A stretch of DNA of 64,000 nt from Raillietiella orientalis. Its lineage: Eukaryota. Below the pieces are notes generated by a model. That model was not told the origin of the DNA and made no database searches. It saw nothing but the letters and a program-made list of their open reading frames with translations. The number at the start of each line of letters is the position of its first letter. The stretch's first letter is position 1. A program made the translations under genes and the position numbers. Location of the stretch: contig JAYWIR010000008.1 in assembly GCA_036172245.1 (NCBI GenBank), forward strand, positions 930,001-994,000, in the 5' to 3' direction. Below are positions 6,505-61,351 of this stretch, in pieces.

Positions 6505-9500
6505 CGTGTGTGTGTGTGCGTGTGTGTGTTTTGAGGGGGGGAGTAAGAGGATCCAATTGTTACAATAACCTTCCCCCACCCCAACCCCTTCTTGTTCTTC
6601 GTTTTTTTTTTTTTATTTCTGATGTCACTTTTCGAGAGTGTGTATGCTGCTTTGTGATTGGTTCATAACTTTGAAAGAGACATATGTTGACTTCCAAAAC
6701 AAACAGGACGTTTTTTTCTTTTCTTTTTTTGTTCTCTTTTTCTTTCTTTCTTTTCTTTGCTTTCTTTTCCTTTTTTGCACATTCTTATCGCATCTCATGC
6801 ATCTTATGTTTAGTTGAAAGAGACCCCTTGATCTCTGATCTGAAATGCAAAAATTAGCCAAGCATGATGCATTTTTTTTCTTGTATGCACACCACTATCA
6901 ATAAGGATTGTATATATTGCATACTTTAGGGTTATAAACAACCCGTTAAAATCTCTGGTTAGTAGAATTCTGCCTGCACTTCTTGAGCACGGATTTTAGT
7001 AGCTCTCACAGTTTGTGTTCCTACGTTTTGATAGCTCTCTTTGAGATGTTTTCCGGGATTGCTACAGGAAAACCAGAGAATTCCGTCAGACATTGCACTC
7101 GAAGGATTTATGTCATGGATCATGATTGTTTGTATCTAGAAACTCCTTTGCTGATTTTTAAACCTTAAAAGAAAACATCCAGCGCGGGATCCAATGGAGG
7201 GCCGCGGCCCGGGTGAAATTTGTGCTCCTTGTGTTCCATTGGGGTCGTTTTTCTTCGCATCCACACGTTGCCTCTTCTCATTATCGGGTTACGAATCCGT
7301 TGCTCTGTGTTTTTTCGTTCTGGAGAAACTTTTCATCCCATCCATTGAGAACGGAAGAGCCCGTTTTTATTTCTTCTTTTGCAGCGCCGCATTCTAGCGT
7401 TTGCTGCTAAAACATGCTCTTCTATTCTAGAATCGCACGCTACGATTCCTGTCTTTTCTGCTTCAGACATTGGACCAGCTTCCAGGATTTGGGATCAGCA
7501 CGAGAACAATAGTTCCTCGAAGTCAATCTCGTCCCCCACGCTTGTTCCCGGTAGCGGCGACTTTGTTGGGCTGAAGAGCAGCAGCAAATCCCAATCGAGG
7601 CAGAGTCTCCTTGACGTGTTTGGCCAGAAGTTGAACACGAATTCCAGGAAAAGAGTCCCGAATGAGTTGTCCATGCTTGGATTCCTCAACCACTTCTCGT
7701 CAGAACGGGACATCACTCAGAAATTGAGGAACCAGATGAGGAAGGAGATCAAGGAGAAGCTGAAACCGGAAAATCATCTGATCGACAAGTCTCTGTGCAA
7801 CTGGACATTCGTGTTCGATCCCGCGGGACGCCTCTGTTACTACTGGTCCATGATCCTGTCCCTCGCTTTCCTGTACAACTTCTGGGTCCTGGTGTACAGG
7901 TTCGCCTTCCAAGAGATCAACTCGGACACGATAATTTTGTGGTTCTGTCTGGATTACTTCATGGACTTTGTGTACGTCGTCGACATCGCGTTCCACTTCC
8001 GAACGGCTTACCTGGAAGAGGGCGTGCTCCAGACTGACACCACGAAACTGAGACACCACTACATGAACTCTATGACATTCTACGTCGACTGCCTGTGTCT
8101 CCTGCCCCTCGACTTTTTGTACTTGTCCATCGGGTTCAACTCCCTGCTAAGGTGCTTCCGCCTGATCAAAGTGTACAGGTTCTGGGCATTCGTGGATCGC
8201 ACCGAGAGGCACATGAACTATCCCAATGTGTTCCGCTCCCTCAACCTTTTGCACTATCTGCTGGCCATATTCCACTGGAACACCTGCATCATCCACATCA
8301 TTGCGAAGAACAACGGGTTTGGAAACAGCGAGTGGGGCTACCCGAATGTGGCGGGCGGCGAAGACACTCTCCTTCAGTACCTCAGGAGCTACTACTGGTG
8401 CACCCTCATCTTCACCACGGTCGGTGATCTGCCCAGGCCTAGAAGCAAAGGGGAGTACGCCTTCATCGTCGTCGAGCTGCATATCGGTCTGATCTTGTTT
8501 GCCACTGTCCTCGGATACATAGCGAATATTGTGACCAATGTCAGTACCTCCAGGAAGGAGTTCCAAGGTCAGCAACAGTATATCTTGTTCTTTCGATCCA
8601 GCAAACACTTTGCACCAATCTAGCGGCACTCCCAAGATGCTGCTGCCCCCGTCGCCTCTGTCCCCTATCTGTCCTTCTCTATCGTGAAAATTCGCCGACA
8701 TTTGCTGTTTCGTGGTTTCCTTGATTAGGTGTGATCGTTAGCGATCGTTTCCGACTTACATCGTTAGTGGACTGTCGACAATGCGAAAGCGCCGGCGGCG
8801 GTCCACTGGAAACGAAAAAGTGCGTTTCCGAAATTCCGGTGTCCTCCCGTAACTTTATAGAACTCCCGCGATTCGGAATGAACACCGACGCAGCACGGCG
8901 GACTGTCTGATTCGTCTCCACTGTGATCACACGAGTTTGTGTCATCGGGGGTTTCTAAAATCAGGAGAATAAGGTCGAAACGAGGATGGACGTGGAGCAT
9001 CCTCATCTCGAAAAGCTTATTCAAGACCCCCATCCCTTGATCACCGGCAAAGAGATTTCACGCGCGGATTTATCAGAGACGCCGTTCCGTTCGCAATGCT
9101 GCGTGGGTATGCATGGATGAGTAACAGGAGCTCTCGGGAAGGAAGGGATCAGGATAACCGCATGTCCGGTCTGGACCGGAACGTATGATTCTCGGACTTA
9201 AGTATAAGCAACAAGCAGGTTACCGTGCATCTACGTTCCGCGTTCGTTATCTGTGTGCAGCAGGAGTGGATGACGCACATGTTAGCTCCGTGAGAATCAA
9301 CTATGCCACTCTGCTGACACTTCGATTCCATTCGGCTTCACTGCTCTGGGGCATCTAGGTAGTGCACAGAGAATTCCGCAGAATACTTTAAAAACCCGTG
9401 AAAAGATCGAAAAGATAAGGTGGTTGGCAGGGCAATCTCTGTTCGCCTAGATGATGACGGCCAGCGTGTTCGTTTTGGGGAATCAAAGGGGAAGGAAAAC

Positions 9501-54351: not shown

Positions 54352-54965
54352 CTCTGAACTACAAAGTCATATTTTATAGGGACAAATAAGTAATTTTATT
54401 TTATGCATATCCATTGTTGTTGTTGTTGTTTTTTAAAAAAAAATTGCCTTCCTTGTAATTTTTCCTAATTAGTTTTCTCATCAGTCAGAAAGTCGGTTGC
54501 ATATTTTCCCAAAATTATTCTTGAAGGTAAATGGGTTTCATATTCATAGATTCCGGTTGATCACCCGGAAGTGCCACGTGATTGGAACAACAAACAACAA
54601 ACAACGACTGATTTAACGAACAAGTATTTTGTTTTCTTTTTTTTTTTGTTTTCTTTTTTTTTTTTTTTTTACGAAAACTTTAAAATGGGGGTCCACGTAA
54701 ATGCCTTTTCCGCGAGATTATGATATTTCGCAACAAAAATATTTTTTACATCTCAGCAGCTTCAAGTTTCTGGTTTGGCTGCGCTTAGTAGAGGAAAGCT
54801 GTATCCCAGTAAATGAGTCCCATATTTGACAAGACAGTAACTGGATGTTCCGCGCGGTGTGGGGCTGACGTTGTGCATCCGTTTTTTCCCAGCTAAATCC
54901 TTTCGCAAGCTTGAAAAGTACAGCTGATGAAAGTGAAAACGAGATCACAAATATAGGGGGAAGGC

Positions 54966-55298
54966 TTTTTTTTTTCTTTTCTTTGTTTTAAATCGGCGTA
55001 CGTGCGTTGCCGTAATGTGCCCCGGTCGTGCGGGTGTGAATCCACGAAGTCCACTTCACGGATCGTTGCGTCACCTGGCAACGAATCTCGTGTTCTATCT
55101 ACCTTGTCACTGCCTGTGGCACCCTTGTCCCAGCAGGAACTGGCGACCAAAAGAGAGGTTCCGCTGAAAAGACCAGAGCGCTTAGTGACCATGAAGCTGC
55201 GCTTCCTAGAAATGCAGCCGGTAGCTCCCCCAACCTTCAGGGGCGACCAGAACTCTGGAAGTTACACTTTGATCTTAGCCAAAAGGCCGAGAAGCGAT
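54966..55298 (-). mobile_element. U2-headed ~335-nt non-coding element with A-rich tail (candidate U2-derived SINE or non-autonomous Utopia derivative)
   Basis: U2 head, then a ~270-nt GC-richer body with several hairpins (55247-55258, 55193-55220, 55064-55083, 55039-55064), then TTTAAAACAAAGAAAAGAAAAAAAAAA (54992-54966). No target-site duplication found. Confidence 0.4.
55263..55298 (-). pseudogene. U2: U2 snRNA 5' fragment (nt 1-36)
   Basis: The minus strand reads ATCGCTTCTCGGCCTTTTGGCTAAGATCAAAGTGTA, the conserved U2 5' end with stem I. It breaks inside the GUAGUA branch-point recognition sequence; no Sm site or U2 3' half follows. Confidence 0.92.
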
Positions 55299-56710
55299 CT
55301 GTGAGGTTACGTGCAGACATCGTGTGCGAAGAACTGCAATCAGGTTTCCATTGTACCCGGTTTGCTCCTTCAAAATGTAGTCAAGATCCATTTGTCCCTC
55401 TTCCTATTCGATCGTTGGACCTAAGGATATTTATTCATACATTAATGAGACCATAACATTGATGGACAAAATAGCTTGTTTCGTTCGTTGTCTCCTGATT
55501 ATCGTACCAGAAATCCTGCATTCAAATTACATACGTTTAGTTTCGTTCACTTTTTATGTTCCTATAAGGCGATTGATGGCTTCTGGATAATTCGAGATGA
55601 AACGATCCAGCTAACGGTGTAGGTGTTTTCTTGAATGCTGATAATTAGTTTCTGGCGTCTTTGAATTACGTAGCTTTTTCTTACCTCCTTGTCGTCACTC
55701 TCTCCGGGAGTTTTCTCATTTCCTCCGCTGTGAAGCAGTCTAGGAGATGCACTTCCCTGTCGTCTCCGCAGGTTCCTCGCCCAATTTGGTCCATTCAAGG
55801 ATAACGTACTCGGAGTGCATCATCGCGAATGCTGTGGGGGGCGAAAGACCTCCTTATGTCACTGCCGTTGGCGACGGAGTTGTGTGGCTGAGTCCGGCCG
55901 CATCAAAGTCCTCTTCGGGGACATTGGGCAGCTTCCCATGCAGTCTCCAACACTACTTTCAGTTTTGAGTTTCATGTGAAGTCGTTTTTAGAAATCGTCC
56001 AAAGAAAAAAAAGGAAAGCTACGATTATTTCATAAGGGCGACAAGGGTCCAATTTTATTCCAGTTTTTTTTTTACCGCAGTCGAAAGAGCTGTGTCCTCT
56101 TATTCGCTTAGAAAAATTTTTTTTTTTTTAAACAAAAATCCCCGATCTCTGAGCTTTCTTCATTATCTTGGCTTCATCTTGAAGGAGGAGGATAAGGAAC
56201 TCTTATTCGGATTCCTCTCGAAAAGGTTTCGCAATGAAACTGGACTCCCTTGCTCCGGCTCAAAGATCTCTTGAAGGATCAATACCGCCTTTCATCTCCC
56301 TCTTGAGTTGGTTTCGAATGCAAATGAGGCAGTCGTCCCCACAATCCGTAAGCTGCAATTCTCTTGCTAATCAGCTTCGTAGGGTTTCTTCGTTCAAACG
56401 CGCGAACCCTTCGCCCATTTCAAACTCTCGGATACGAAGGGAAGTATTTTCCACTTCAGAGCACTATAAAAGTTTTTCGCCCCCAAAATGCTAGACCGCG
56501 CGATTATTAAATGTCTACATTGAAAACGGAAAATTAGAATGCAAAGAGTAGTTCATCCATAAAGAATCATAATAGCTAAGTTTAAGACCTACGTAACTAT
56601 CAAGAGAAGAAAACTTTTATCGTAGCAGAAAGTATCCTGGGGACTGTTGATCCACTTTGGCCTTAAGGTCAATGGTGAAACATCGACTTTATAGCCTTTA
56701 GTCTAAAGTC

Positions 56711-59401
56711 TTTATTACTTTAAAAGATACAGGGTTCCTCATTTGGAGAGAGCTCGTATACAAAATGGACGGAAAACAAGACTGATTGCCGATTCACGGT
56801 ATCGCAGCATCATTCGCGAGTTGAATGTTCTGGATGCTGGATCTCTTTTGGAGGGACTCATGGTCGTGGAATGTTTTCATCCGTTGATCCTGGGGAGGCA
56901 TACCAGATTTAGCAGTTGACGGCGGAACTGCTACTTCACGGAGGCTCTTCCATTTTCAGAGGCCACGGAAGGCAAACAGGAAGCGGCACGGGTTGTGGAG
57001 GTTCTCACTTTTCGAGGGACTTCACCAGTAGGTGAGGGGTCGAATTCCTCAGGGCGATCGTCACTAGCTGCATCCTCGTACCAGCTAACTTTGTGTTCCA
57101 CGGCCTGTTCCTCGGAGCGTGGTTCAGTGTTGTCGGCACCTCTGCAAGATGTTCTGGAACCTATCGAGGGAACGGGGCTGCGAACCGTATGCACAGGGGG
57201 CACAAGTGGAACACTGAGCGTGGGGTTGGGGTTAGCCGTGGGCTAGCCGGGCGGGAAGGGTCGAGGTTTGTCAGGCAGAGAAACGCATCCAGAGCCTTGG
57301 TGCATGGTTGGTACTTGATGTGTTTCGCGTAGATATCTCTGGATGCTCTTATGACGGCTGCGATCACCCTGTCCCTAAGGGCTTTCGCATGCGGCTCGGG
57401 TGTGCCAAGTCTGGCAAGGACTTCATCGCTCCTTGGCTCCCAGGCTCTCAGTGTGCCGATGGTGAATGCATCAACGCAGACCGTCATGCCGGAGTTGCGG
57501 AAATACTGGGCAAGCTGAGCATGCTTTTTGACTGTCTCTGTCTGCGCAAATCTGGAGGAGTCTCGAAAGTTCTCAAAGGGGGTGGCAACGTCGATGATGG
57601 CAGCCTGGAAGTCGTCATAGACAACAAGGTCGGGTCGGAGGGAGGAGTTTGAATAGCCCGCTTGTTGGCCGGTTTGGAGTCTGAGCCAGTAAGGGCACGA
57701 GGTTTCGGTCAGTTCCTTAAGGACTAAGTTGTGGCGCTCGGTTATGAAACTGCCAAGGTGGTATCGGCAGTGGGCGAGTACGTGGCAGATAGATTCCTTG
57801 GGCCAGGTGCATCTTCTGCATCTCTCAAAAAAGCCGGGGCGCTTCATGTTCCCATTGAGCGGCAGTGAGTTCAGCCGCGCTCGATGGATAAATCTCCAAT
57901 CTGAAAAACAGAGAAACACATCTCAGAAGAAAGCTGTCAGAGGCAGGATGCAGGGAGAGACAGTCCATGATTCGACCCTCAGCAGGATTGCTGAGCAGTG
58001 TAGATGTTCTGCCCATCCGCTGCATCGAGCGAATCGTCCTGGCCACTTGCCAGACGCAGGTAGCAGGTGATCCGTTTGCCAGGAATTGAAATGCCAATGG
58101 AATTATCCTGAACGGATCAGGACAGCGGGAGCCTTCTGGGGGATTCCCGCACTACTGGCCAGGAGCTCTTTGGGTCGCCAGAAGGGGCATTAATGGGAGA
58201 CACCGTCACCATTCAGGAAGCGCGCTATGGTAATGTTCGTTGGGAGAGAGCGGGATTTGCGCCTCAGCACTTCACCCAATGAACTGCGCGCGAGTTCACG
58301 CACCAGGGGAGAACAAAAGCTTGAAAACGGAGTCCATGAACATGATGGAGCTCTCTTGCTGGAGAATGTGACATCCAATGCCTCCAACAGGAGCAGCTAT
58401 GTAGAGGTACTCCGCAGAAGCGGCTTGAGGGAGGGTGAGCATCGAGATTTCAGTGCTTTGTTAATGATGTTCAGCTGCTTATGAAAGGTGAGAGGCTTGA
58501 AGTGCATTCGAAGAAAGCGGGTGAGGGGAGGAAGGGGGAAGACCTTGAGATCATCCAATTTCTGCCAAGGGGTCAGGGCAGAGTCGAAAATCCGTTCCAA
58601 GTTCTGAAGAATTTCCTCTTCTCCAGCATCCTGTCTCAGGGCGTCGGAGTGATTTATAATGTTAGGATTATGGGGTTCGTGAGGTTTCCTTTTTAGAAGG
58701 TTATTATAGAAAAGATTATTTAGTAGAATGAATATGGTTTACCCAGGTACTCTTATGCTTCATTGTTCTGGAGTGCTTCTGCCGTTCCCTAGATGGTCCT
58801 CAAGAACGAAGTTACGTTCAAGAACCCCGTCGAAGGGGAGGAATCCTTTCCGAAGGGGGGCTGATGATTCCATTGCGGAGGGTCCAGTTGCTTAGTCGTC
58901 TGGCTAAACACTTGGCGAAGAGCTTGCATGGTGTTGCCGATCGCAGTCGGTCGGAACTCCTTATTCGTTCTCATCCGCGAGGTTGTGCTTCGGCATAAGA
59001 ATCGAGTAGCTGTCTTTCCAGTCAACTGGGAGTTTTCTATGGGCCAGGAAGATGTTGAACAGTTTTGATAGCAGCACACATTGGGGATCCTCTCGCAGGA
59101 GGTGATCATATGTTATCCTATCGGAGCCAGGAGAGGTGTTTTTACTCGCGGAAAGAGACTCAAGTGTCTCGAGGGGAGAAAACGGGTAGAGGTCCATGGT
59201 GTCATGGGGGGGACAGATCCTCGCAACAGTCCAGGAGGAAGCTGGCATCGAACTCGCGAGGTGCATGGAGGAGAAGTGCTGCTCTGTGGCATCTCAGTTC
59301 ACTTCACATTGTTTTCCGCGTTCACAAAGAATCACAAAGTTCACAAAGATCTCTCGCATCACCTTCCTGCGATTTACGCGGCACAGATTTTGAACTTTGG
59401 A
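56711..59401 (-). mobile_element. Degenerate RLE-type non-LTR retrotransposon, Utopia/NeSL-like; 5'-truncated, with the RT core deleted
   Basis: Minus-strand fragments in order: pre-RT motif SKVQNLCRVNRRKVMREI (~59400-59345), RT 0-2 (PFSPLE, SPGSDRITY, WKDSYSILMPK, FRPTAIGNT, KGFLPFDGVLERNFVL), EYLGKP, thumb DSALTPWQKLDDLKVF, DWRFIHRARLNSLPLNG, CCHC knuckle CRRC...ESICHVLAHC, RHN, and RLE LRPDLVV...IIDVATPFEN. There are frameshifts and stops. The 3' end is placed at AATAAA (56716-56711). Confidence 0.9.
57161..57919 (-). pseudogene. Zinc-knuckle plus restriction-like endonuclease portion of the retrotransposon ORF (open for 252 codons)
   Basis: ORF track 57161..57919 contains CRRC-x8-H-x4-C, RHN, and the PD..D motif (RPDLVVYDDFQAAIIDV). 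Confidence 0.85.
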
Positions 59402-59436
59402 ACACTTTGATCTTAACCAAAAGGCCGAGAAGCGAA
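59402..59436 (-). pseudogene. U2: U2 snRNA 5' fragment (nt ~1-35) fused to the 5' end of the retrotransposon
   Basis: The minus strand reads TTCGCTTCTCGGCCTTTTGGTTAAGATCAAAGTGT, with 2 substitutions relative to the copy at 55263-55298. Retrotransposon coding sequence follows immediately. Confidence 0.9.
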
Positions 59437-59548
59437 GTCCTCGGTATCCGATCTCGATTCACTGATATTTCCAATCAAATTATAGTAAAACTACCAAAAT
59501 AGAAAACCACATGATTATTAGTATGCTGGGTTTCTGAGAAAATATCCA

Positions 59549-59604
59549 TTTTACATAGTTAATAGCTAACTCGAAATATCGAATTAGCTATTAACTATGT
59601 AAAA
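59549..59604. repeat. Perfect 21-bp inverted repeat (hairpin/cruciform)
   Basis: ttttacatagttaatagctaa (59549-59569), spacer c-tcga-aata-tcga-a, ttagctattaactatgtaaaa (59584-59604). Confidence 0.95.
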
Positions 59605-59614
59605 GCCACTGCTA

Positions 59615-61351
59615 TAATGAAGTCCGTATTGACACCTCACTTTGAAACGCTCTTCTTGATGTTATAGAGACTGGTCCTTTTAGTATTTTCATTGATGAAT
59701 CCAATGATATTAGTGCGACTAAAATTCTAGGAATCGCTGTTGTATGCTTCAGTCATCAGTCGGGAAGGGTGGAATCTCCTTTTTTGGCATTGGCTGAACT
59801 TGACGCACTTGTGATGAGGAATCTGTCTGTTGCTGCTACTGTGAAGGAAACACTTGGTAGTAAAGGATTGAACAGTCAAAATATGAAAGCGATTGGTGTC
59901 GATCATGCGAGCGTCGTGACTGGCGTGTGCGCGAAACTGAGAAGTGAATGCCCAGGGCTTACAGTGATCCGTTGCGAGTGTCACTCTCTCCAATTGGTTG
60001 TTTCTGCAGCCTCAGATTGCTCTCCCACTTGACTTTTTTTTTTTTCTTGACTTTTTAGAGAGAGAAGTCTATAACTGGTTTTTCCATTCTGCCTTACGGC
60101 GAGATGGTTACAAGGTTCTATTTGCTGCCATGAATGATGGGGGCAATCCTAGAAATATTGTACAGAAGTGCCAGACTCGTTGGCTGTCGATTGAGACTGC
60201 AATAAACAGAATTCTGGATCATTGGGTAGAAATCAGTGCTATGTTTAGAACTGCGAATACAGCAGAGAAGAGAAAGATTATACAGCATCCCTTTTGAGCA
60301 ATATGCTTTCTGATGAGAAAAACCACGCATTCCTCCTCTTCCTCCTACCAGTATTGACTGACGTGCGTAGGGTAAACAAATCATTTGAGGTCAGTAATGC
60401 CGACTGTACCAAGCTCTTGGATGATCTGGCTGGTTTGATGGAGAACACGGCCAAGAAGTTTGTGTTTCCAACCTGCAGGAAGGACTTCCTTACAAAAAAT
60501 CCTGATTGTGTTCACTGGCGTTCCTATCTGGGCTATGAAGTTGAGGAGAAAATGCATCAAATCAAACTGCCATCAGGAGAAAAAACTGACTTCAGCAAAA
60601 GATGCATTATCTTCCTTATTAGATTAAATAAACAGCTTCAAGAAAGACTGCCTCATAATATCTTTATATTAATGACAGTGACATTAATGACAATGTCAAT
60701 AATTTTCGTGTCCCGTGCTCTTCGTGTTGTCAAAGTCCATTGATACCATTGATACAGCACCTCCAAATTCCATCAGACCAGATTGCAAAAGCAAAAATCC
60801 AGTAAAGAGACAAGTGTAAAGTGAGAGAAAGCTGCCAGAACAATTGAACTCCGGAGTGAAGTAGCTAAAGTCGCATCTGTTGAATCCATTTCACGAGTTG
60901 GTTGAAGTAATGTTCTTCCATGGTCTAACGCTCAAGTAACAAGAATCTTCGGCTTGATGCACATCGTGAAGTCAAAACTACGAAACCAGATGGAAACGGA
61001 ATTGGTCAATGCAATTCTCACAATCAGGGAAGGTCTAGACCTCTTTGAAAAATGCTGCAAGGATTGTCAATTGCATCAGAGGTTTCTAAGGAAAACAGGT
61101 AACATTGGCTGCCTACAGAAATGAAAATGGACAAGCTCCAAGCACTTCACAATCGCGGCACTATTTCTTCGATGAGGATGATCCAGAGAACCTGCAATTT
61201 TGAACGAGTTATATATTAAGATCACTTTTCACTCATCAAATACTCATTGCATTTTATGAATAATAATAATTTCCTAAATATTAGAATCTGGAGCATCGCG
61301 GCTTTTCGAAGGCCATCTAAAGGATTCCATTAACTTCTGTTGGCAATGCTG
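59615..61351 (+). mobile_element. Decayed hAT-superfamily DNA transposon (ZNF862-like transposase pseudogene) with a putative right TIR
   Basis: Frameshifted fragments: FSIFIDESNDIS (first catalytic D), IGVDHASVVTG, IRCECHSLQL (CxxH), CQTRWLSIETAINRIL, and C-terminal dimerisation-type LPWSNAQVTRIFGLMHIVKSKLRNQM. GTTGGCAATGCTG at 61339-61351 resembles a CAG..TTGCCA hAT terminus. No left TIR or BED finger found. Confidence 0.85.

Follow-up and report, generated by a model that had tools for sequence, protein, structure and literature searches.

Members of the Utopia lineage nick U2 small nuclear RNA (snRNA) genes between nucleotides 38 and 39 (human numbering) and insert by target-primed reverse transcription. 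Utopia was described as a group of NeSL-clade elements with a restriction-like endonuclease (RLE), in which the 3' end is followed by U2 from nucleotide 39 onward, and its hosts include Drosophila yakuba, Ixodes and other ticks, a spider and parasitoid wasps (Kojima & Jurka 2015, PMC4640811). Among the 65 Utopia families, 44 were seen with U2 at the 3' side, but only 11 with U2 at the 5' side (PMC4640811). The present study concerns a window of 64,000 nucleotides from Raillietiella orientalis (assembly GCA_036172245.1, contig JAYWIR010000008.1, positions 930,001 to 994,000), in which a decayed retrotransposon is joined directly to the first 35 nucleotides of U2 (head 1). The element is very probably a relic of the Utopia lineage carrying a U2 head. 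A second U2 fragment (head 2) lies 4.1 kb away in the same orientation, and the two heads with the sequences behind them are called here unit 1 and unit 2. The element reverses the published pattern, as U2 was found on its 5' side only and none on its 3' side.

Both heads were recognised by the U2 model in Infernal, at 59436-59266(-) for head 1 (30.7 bits, E=2.1e-3) and at 55298-55207(-) for head 2 (34 bits, E=3.5e-4). These scores were below the gathering score of 46 because the true match is confined to model positions 1 to ~35, and no Rfam match reached the gathering threshold in the whole 64-kb window. A 22-nt U2 motif occurred at exactly two places in the window, corresponding to the two heads (0 and 1 mismatch), and two such hits were obtained in none of 100 shuffles. 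When an intact U2 from metagenome locus L005 was used as a reference, head 2 was identical at 36/36 positions and head 1 at 33/34, and a repeat finder returned the heads as a co-oriented pair of 34 nt with 97% identity and a spacing of 4138 nt. Both heads contain GATCAAAGTGT, which is the fly/nematode form of U2 printed in S1 Fig of PMC4640811 and not the vertebrate form. The host U2 is of the protostome type, and the ends of the heads are given in insect-type U2 numbering. The break points are one base apart, at T35 in head 1 and A36 in head 2, inside GUGU/AGUA. The published Utopia site lies 3-4 nt further into U2, the canonical 3' flank beginning 4 nt (T35) and 3 nt (A36) after the breaks. 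A 5' part of U2 that stands upstream of the element and ends close to the target site, which is a feature of the Utopia lineage, was therefore present.

The features of the two units are listed in Table 1. The extent of the element was established by mapping full-length relatives with tblastn: residues 230-1079 of P0001 (of 1080) mapped to 59410-57308(-), and shorter blocks were obtained with P0004 (residues 332-534 and 734-1178) and P0017 (residues 399-599, 774-955 and 1015-1211). The first codons past head 1, SKVQNLCRVNRRK, aligned with the pre-reverse transcriptase (pre-RT) motif SRIQRLYRANRSK of the relatives. As the element starts at this motif, the 5' untranslated region (UTR) and the N-terminal third, with the zinc-finger region, are absent from this copy. 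The truncation point corresponds to residues 230-400 of the relatives and carries no information on the N-terminal zinc fingers of the intact family. The GC content was 0.5-0.6 from 59300 to ~56800 and had reached the host level (~0.35-0.40) by ~56700, which places the 3' end near 56711. The sequence past this putative end reads ACTTTAGACT..., and the end does not adjoin U2 nucleotide 39 onward. The terminal sequences GGAACCCTGTATCT and ...AGTAATAAAG resembled by eye the 3' end ...GGAAACCCTGTATCTATGTAATTAGCATCAATAAAAAA of the tick element Utopia-1_IS, one of a few dozen ends shown in PMC4640811 (S1 Fig); this likeness between the sequences is suggestive only.

Table 1. Coordinates of the U2 heads and of the sequences behind them (positions in the window).
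Feature	Position	Strand	Basis and remarks
U2 snRNA head 1 (nt 1-35)	59402..59436	-	nt 1 and nt 21 unlike U2 in L005
Body of the decayed, probably Utopia-lineage non-LTR (lacking long terminal repeats) retrotransposon, from pre-RT motif to putative 3' end	56710..59401	-	tblastn maps, GC profile
First element codons SKVQNLCRVNRRKVMREI, conserved pre-RT motif	59348..59401	-	Touching U2 T35; alignments to P0001, P0002, P0017, P0022 and P0010
N-terminal part of the RT, motifs ahead of the catalytic core	58775..59293	-	Stops at 59294-59296 and 58961-58963; frame changes at ~58960-58860
AT-richer stretch of 156 nt without homology	58619..58774	-	Replaces ~175-200 residues of relatives, including YADD
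C-terminal part of the RT and linker, in changing frames	58063..58618	-	tblastn
Open frame of 253 codons: CCHC zinc knuckle and PD-(D/E)xK RLE	57161..57922	-	Alignment, homology
3' untranslated part	56710..57160	-	GGAACCCTGTATCT at 56738-56725, ...AGTAATAAAG ending at 56710; end uncertain by tens of bases
U2 snRNA head 2 (nt 1-36)	55263..55298	-	Same as U2 in L005
10-mer TCCAGAGTTC	55250..55259	-	9/10 same as the first 10 nt of the element past head 1; 4 nt past T35
Open frame of 122 codons beginning directly past head 2	54893-55261	-	GC-rich
GC-rich sequence behind head 2, with A-rich end at 54990-54966	54966..55249	-	No relatives

The copy is a relic. Residues 534-734 of P0004 and 599-774 of P0017, which contain the YADD motif at 644 and 684, respectively, had no counterpart, so that the RT catalytic core is gone, and several frame changes and in-frame stops were scattered across the remaining RT part. 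The order of RT, CCHC knuckle and PD-(D/E)xK RLE was preserved. The RLE frame retained the columns that were invariant among 15 aligned sequences (C35, H47, H64, P97, D98, F116, G156 and S194), and Pfam returned only a weak zf-RVT match below the cut-off (E=0.028). A tblastn search with 174 relatives yielded no credible further copy in the window outside 57074-59467 (best other E=0.037), and blastn of the window against itself returned nothing but the head pair and T-rich runs.

With the RLE frame as a query, 26 longer proteins were retrieved at 35-42% identity, a scorpion protein being the best, followed by proteins of Drosophila yakuba and Drosophila teissieri, ticks, a grasshopper and Trichogramma. 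Ticks, Drosophila yakuba and parasitoid wasps also figure among the published hosts of Utopia (PMC4640811). An exhaustive profile-free search with the same frame gave 986 proteins at E<=1e-3, with a maximum identity of 42%. Metagenome contigs were scanned for relatives of the RLE, which gave 48 loci. A U2 tail, TCTGTTCTTATCAG, was present on the same strand 164-855 nt past the RLE match in 9 of the 48 (8 exact and 1 with one mismatch), and in 8 of the 27 that had at least 365 nt downstream. The motif lay elsewhere, originating from tandem or neighbouring copies, in 3 of the 48 and was absent from 36. Rfam found no U2 in 18 loci without the tail motif. All of the 11 printed junctions had the form element 3' end/TCTGTTCTT[A/G]TCAG followed by more U2-like sequence, and the junction "...TAA/TCTGTTCTTATCAG" of the relatives is the published Utopia/U2 3' junction. 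Since the closest relatives that were fetched show this junction, the assignment to the Utopia family is supported. The lineage of these U2-flanked relatives was matched by the RLE frame at E down to 1.5e-39, and comparison with the 48 loci by blastn and tblastx showed likeness only at the U2 heads and the RLE. Kinship with genuine U2-site elements has been shown, but not a placement within the named Utopia cluster.

Some of these loci also contained U2 on the upstream side. In L005 (837-900 and 5802), L014 (1639), L030 (reverse strand) and L031 (773), upstream U2 reached to about nucleotide 61 and the same ~22 nt, TCTGTTCTTATCAGCTTAATAT, occurred again past the element, indicating that these families made a target duplication. 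The short piece of U2 past the 3' end in L014 and L030 was followed immediately by non-U2 sequence, as would fit tandem copies parted only by such a piece. At L011:5891-5919, an inverted 29-mer resembling a U2 head (~90%) lay past the U2 tail of the element at a distance of ~550 nt, and may represent an adjacent, oppositely oriented U2 gene.

The original prediction had described a 5'-truncated non-LTR element of the RLE type, with U2 nucleotides 1-35 fused directly to its coding sequence at the pre-RT motif, without a 5' UTR or N-terminal zinc fingers, and with the U2 breaks of the two fragments within 1-2 nt of each other. The fusion was borne out by the Infernal, motif and alignment evidence, the missing N-terminal region by the alignment of the first codons with the pre-RT motif, the position of the breaks by T35 and A36, and the type of element by the mapping of relatives and the RLE frame. 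Its assignment to Utopia was upheld, at the level of the Utopia lineage, by the 3' junction of the nearest fetchable relatives. The loss of the RT core, the stops and frameshifts, and a 10-mer common to both junctions had gone unmentioned in that account.

The locus agrees with the published Utopia elements in the order of RT, CCHC knuckle and RLE, in a U2 head ending at most 4 nt from the published site, and in relatives that carry the published 3' junction, and it differs in having U2 at the 5' side and none at the 3' junction, in its truncation and in its internal deletion. It is another Utopia-type copy, ordinary save for the missing rest of the U2 gene. As 20 of the 65 published families also lack any U2-flanked copy (PMC4640811), the missing 3' U2 concerns the insertion and not the phylogenetic family. 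R2, which is specific for 28S ribosomal DNA (solved structures 9nl3, 9dou and 8gh6), has the same general architecture and also uses target-primed reverse transcription. The RT of R2 proteins was matched by relative P0001 at E=4e-72, whereas the RLE of the window matched them at only E=9e-9, far more distantly than the U2-flanked relatives; the locus has no 28S context, and Rfam found no rRNA match in the window. Keno and Tx1-type elements share the Utopia site in U2 at their 3' junction, and Keno has an apurinic-like endonuclease (PMC4640811). The N-terminal apurinic/apyrimidinic endonuclease of that group was not found, the endonuclease of the present element being a C-terminal RLE.

Chimeras of snRNA with long interspersed elements (LINEs), and the SINEU elements, likewise have a short 5' snRNA head, a 5'-truncated retroelement in the same orientation and a break in a single-stranded segment (PMC4476161, PMC4494074). 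They are products of L1- or Tx1-type enzymes and usually have target-site duplications and poly(A). The present element differs in that the partner of U2 is itself a U2-targeting element and in that no duplication was found. With respect to Group IV of Doucet et al. (PMC4476161), a 5' part of an snRNA joined in sense to a 5'-truncated retroelement was present, but no flanking duplication was found.

The window was then considered as a possible former U2 gene. With up to 3 mismatches allowed, TCTGTTCTTATCAG had no match in the 64 kb, and at E up to 10 the two heads were the only U2 hits given by Infernal. The 150 nt upstream of the heads were unrelated to each other, as their local alignment score of 19 did not exceed the shuffle mean of 19.1 (252/500 shuffles reached 19), and in register the upstream flanks were identical at 22/80 positions. 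The likeness between the two units begins at U2 nucleotide 1-2. As the heads are 94-100% intact, shared promoters would remain visible if both had been U2 genes of one family.

The likeness between the units was limited to ~48 columns with 87.5% identity in the blastn self-comparison, and it extended a little past U2. The 10-mers at the junctions were TCCAAAGTTC in unit 1 and TCCAGAGTTC in unit 2, with the consensus TCCARAGTTC and with AACT interposed in unit 2. A likeness as good as this, at most 4 nt past the head, was found in 137 of 200,000 random pairs from the region (p ~7e-4). Unit 2 was also compared with unit 1 as a possible diverged copy, and this was rejected as the local score of 31 was close to that of shuffles (29.6 +/- 2.9). 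No Pfam, Atlas or tblastn relatives were found for the 122-codon frame behind head 2. Pfam searches with 30 frames, among them those of the 1.4 kb that separates the units, gave nothing meaningful. A further A-rich run near unit 2 was present at 54680-54626, and imperfect direct repeats seen by eye at head 2 (~8/11) were not convincing. The first 21 nt of the element (59381-59401(-), coding SKVQNLC) were the same as U2 nucleotides 26-46 at 14/21 positions, a match to U2 1-70 that was equalled by 10 of the 2671 21-mers of the element body. As this U2-like stretch stands in tandem with the head and not in register with it, simple microhomology-guided joining of the 5' end was inadequate as an explanation and was rejected.

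Taken together, it seems somewhat more probable that the head was brought as RNA than that it was left in place, since the boundary falls exactly at the U2 start, the upstream DNA is unrelated and the U2 tail is missing. Accordingly worded as a mechanism, the locus would never have been a U2 gene, and the U2 head would have come as RNA along with the element. The most likely source would be a 5'-truncated Utopia copy lodged in the sense direction in a genuine U2 gene, whose promoter would drive its transcription from U2 +1. A functional Utopia protein would then have reverse-transcribed the chimeric RNA at a site outside U2, and the U2 tail would not have been copied because reverse transcription begins at the 3' end that belongs to the element. 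Head 2, with the same junction at a distance of 4.1 kb, might be a further, rearranged descendant of the same chimera. This co-transcript route explains both the shared junction and the nearness of the breaks to the canonical site. Utopia insertions outside U2 genes have been reported (PMC4640811), and PMC4494074 discusses, for R2 and SINEU, transcription together with the target. The insertion of a U2-headed Utopia RNA into a non-U2 site was ranked first among the explanations, at a little under even chances, and, provided that the head was RNA-borne, it is modestly preferred over a jump of the enzyme between templates.

Several observations weigh against this explanation. The analysis rests on a single locus, and the statistic for the 10-mer is post hoc. 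Past the 10-mer, unit 2 is unlike unit 1 and has no protein relatives, so that descent from the same chimera needs an extra rearrangement. Two co-oriented RNA-borne units only 4.1 kb apart would be a coincidence, which a clustered U2 locus explains more easily. No target-site duplication of at least 7 nt was found around either unit when the 40 nt upstream of the heads were compared with the candidate 3' flanks. RLE elements often make no target-site duplication. In addition, an unrooted tree of the RLE used 87 of the 196 rows, namely the window, the 24 locus rows in full, P0001-P0026 and one in four of the other proteins, with no named Utopia, NeSL, R4 or HERO sequences among them. The window fell in a group of 10 rows (Shimodaira-Hasegawa-like approximate likelihood ratio test, SH-aLRT, 81), comprising proteins from ENA/Logan and loci L008 and L016, and no member of this group showed U2; in L008 no U2 was present in the 720 nt downstream. 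The group of 77 rows that holds all 10 U2-labelled loci stands beside the group of the window and not around it.

The first alternative is that Utopia-type elements were inserted in place, at the canonical site of two clustered U2 genes whose tails and promoters were lost later. This fits the behaviour of the lineage and the distance of 3-4 nt between the head end and the nick site reported for it, the 5' boundaries of Utopia being variable (PMC4640811), and it accommodates two co-oriented heads at so short a distance. Tandem or clustered copies within U2 arrays were seen in the metagenome relatives L005, L014, L030 and L031, and in Nasonia and Phytophthora more U2 genes are disrupted than intact (PMC4640811). 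However, the 3' junction, which is the precise side and the one most often flanked by U2, is non-U2 in both units, and two separate deletions would be required, each taking exactly the U2 tail. Nearly intact heads are also at odds with the lack of any upstream similarity, and two truncation points that arose independently would not be expected to share the 10-mer. Insertion in place was therefore considered rather unlikely, and the destroyed tandem U2 locus that the original prediction had offered as one option is not supported, in view of the missing tail and the unrelated 150-nt flanks. The other option that it had offered, repeated capture of U2 RNA, fits better than a tandem locus, but the common 10-mer argues against captures that were independent.

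A second alternative, which was thought doubtful to a similar degree, is a template jump of the U6-L1 or SINEU type, in which the enzyme leaves the element RNA (or another RNA, in unit 2) at a non-U2 site for free U2 snRNA, enters it at the single-stranded branch-point region and continues to U2 nucleotide 1. A jump of this kind would account for the start of the heads at nucleotide 1-2 and for the unrelated upstream flanks, as well as for the extra AACT at the junction of unit 2 and the A-rich runs at its end. Retrocopies of snRNA break at single-stranded segments, and chimeras of snRNA with 5'-truncated LINEs arise by template switching, according to PMC4476161; short U2-derived heads, one of them of 32 bp, were repeatedly added to crocodilian retroposons, according to PMC4494074. 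The jump leaves unexplained why U2 should be fused to a U2-targeting lineage, of all elements, and why TCCARAGTTC occurs at both junctions, and neither an in-register microhomology at the junction nor a flanking target-site duplication was found. Local copying at the DNA level, with one chimera only and the second head and 10-mer transferred as a patch of ~48 bp by gene conversion or repair, is improbable: it suits the short extent (~48 columns, 87.5%), the proximity (4.1 kb) and the common orientation of the likeness, but an exact start at U2 nucleotide 1 would be unaccounted for in a DNA patch, and no additional duplicated flank was found.

The surroundings of the two units were also inspected. 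Pieces of a hAT-type transposase whose reading frame shifts (FIDESNDIS..., ...CQTRWLS...) were present at 59646-60743(+), with a weak DUF4371 match in Pfam (E=0.069); the N-terminal half is missing beside the U2 head, and a search for homologues of the frame found none. A search with the condensin exon likewise gave no match. An inverted repeat of 26 nt with 96% complementarity and a 4-nt loop lies at 59549-59604, between the U2 head and the hAT fragment, and had only weak microRNA-like hits in Rfam. GC content is very high in the first ~40 kb of the window (1-40000), where each of the six reading frames contains long open stretches, and the last ~24 kb are AT-rich. Exons resembling the alpha subunit of cyclic nucleotide-gated (CNG) channels were found at 7349-8623 and at ~18.3-21.2 kb (E=4.7e-67 to human CNGA3), the alignment with CNGA3 giving 230 bits over ~260 aligned residues (~0.9 bit per residue).

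Few retrotransposon lineages are tied to an essential gene of low copy number, and Utopia is among them. The zinc knuckle and RLE had been put forward in the original prediction as a sequence-specific integration system, but the RLE frame, although open, belongs to a copy without an RT core, and the value of this single decayed relic is as a lead for a genome-wide survey of junctions and not as a usable integration system. It is conceivable, although rather unlikely on the present evidence, that U2(1-35) plus truncated Utopia constitutes a non-autonomous family of U2-headed retroposons, transcribed from the promoter of a U2 gene at a master copy and spread by the Utopia protein outside U2 genes. 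If true, such a family would be an invertebrate counterpart of the SINEU or R2-SIDE elements, and it would be direct evidence that Utopia RNA starts at U2 +1. A U2 leader kept outside a U2 gene hints that the RNA of the element begins where that of U2 begins, and that copies can still be mobilised to sites other than the target after truncation.

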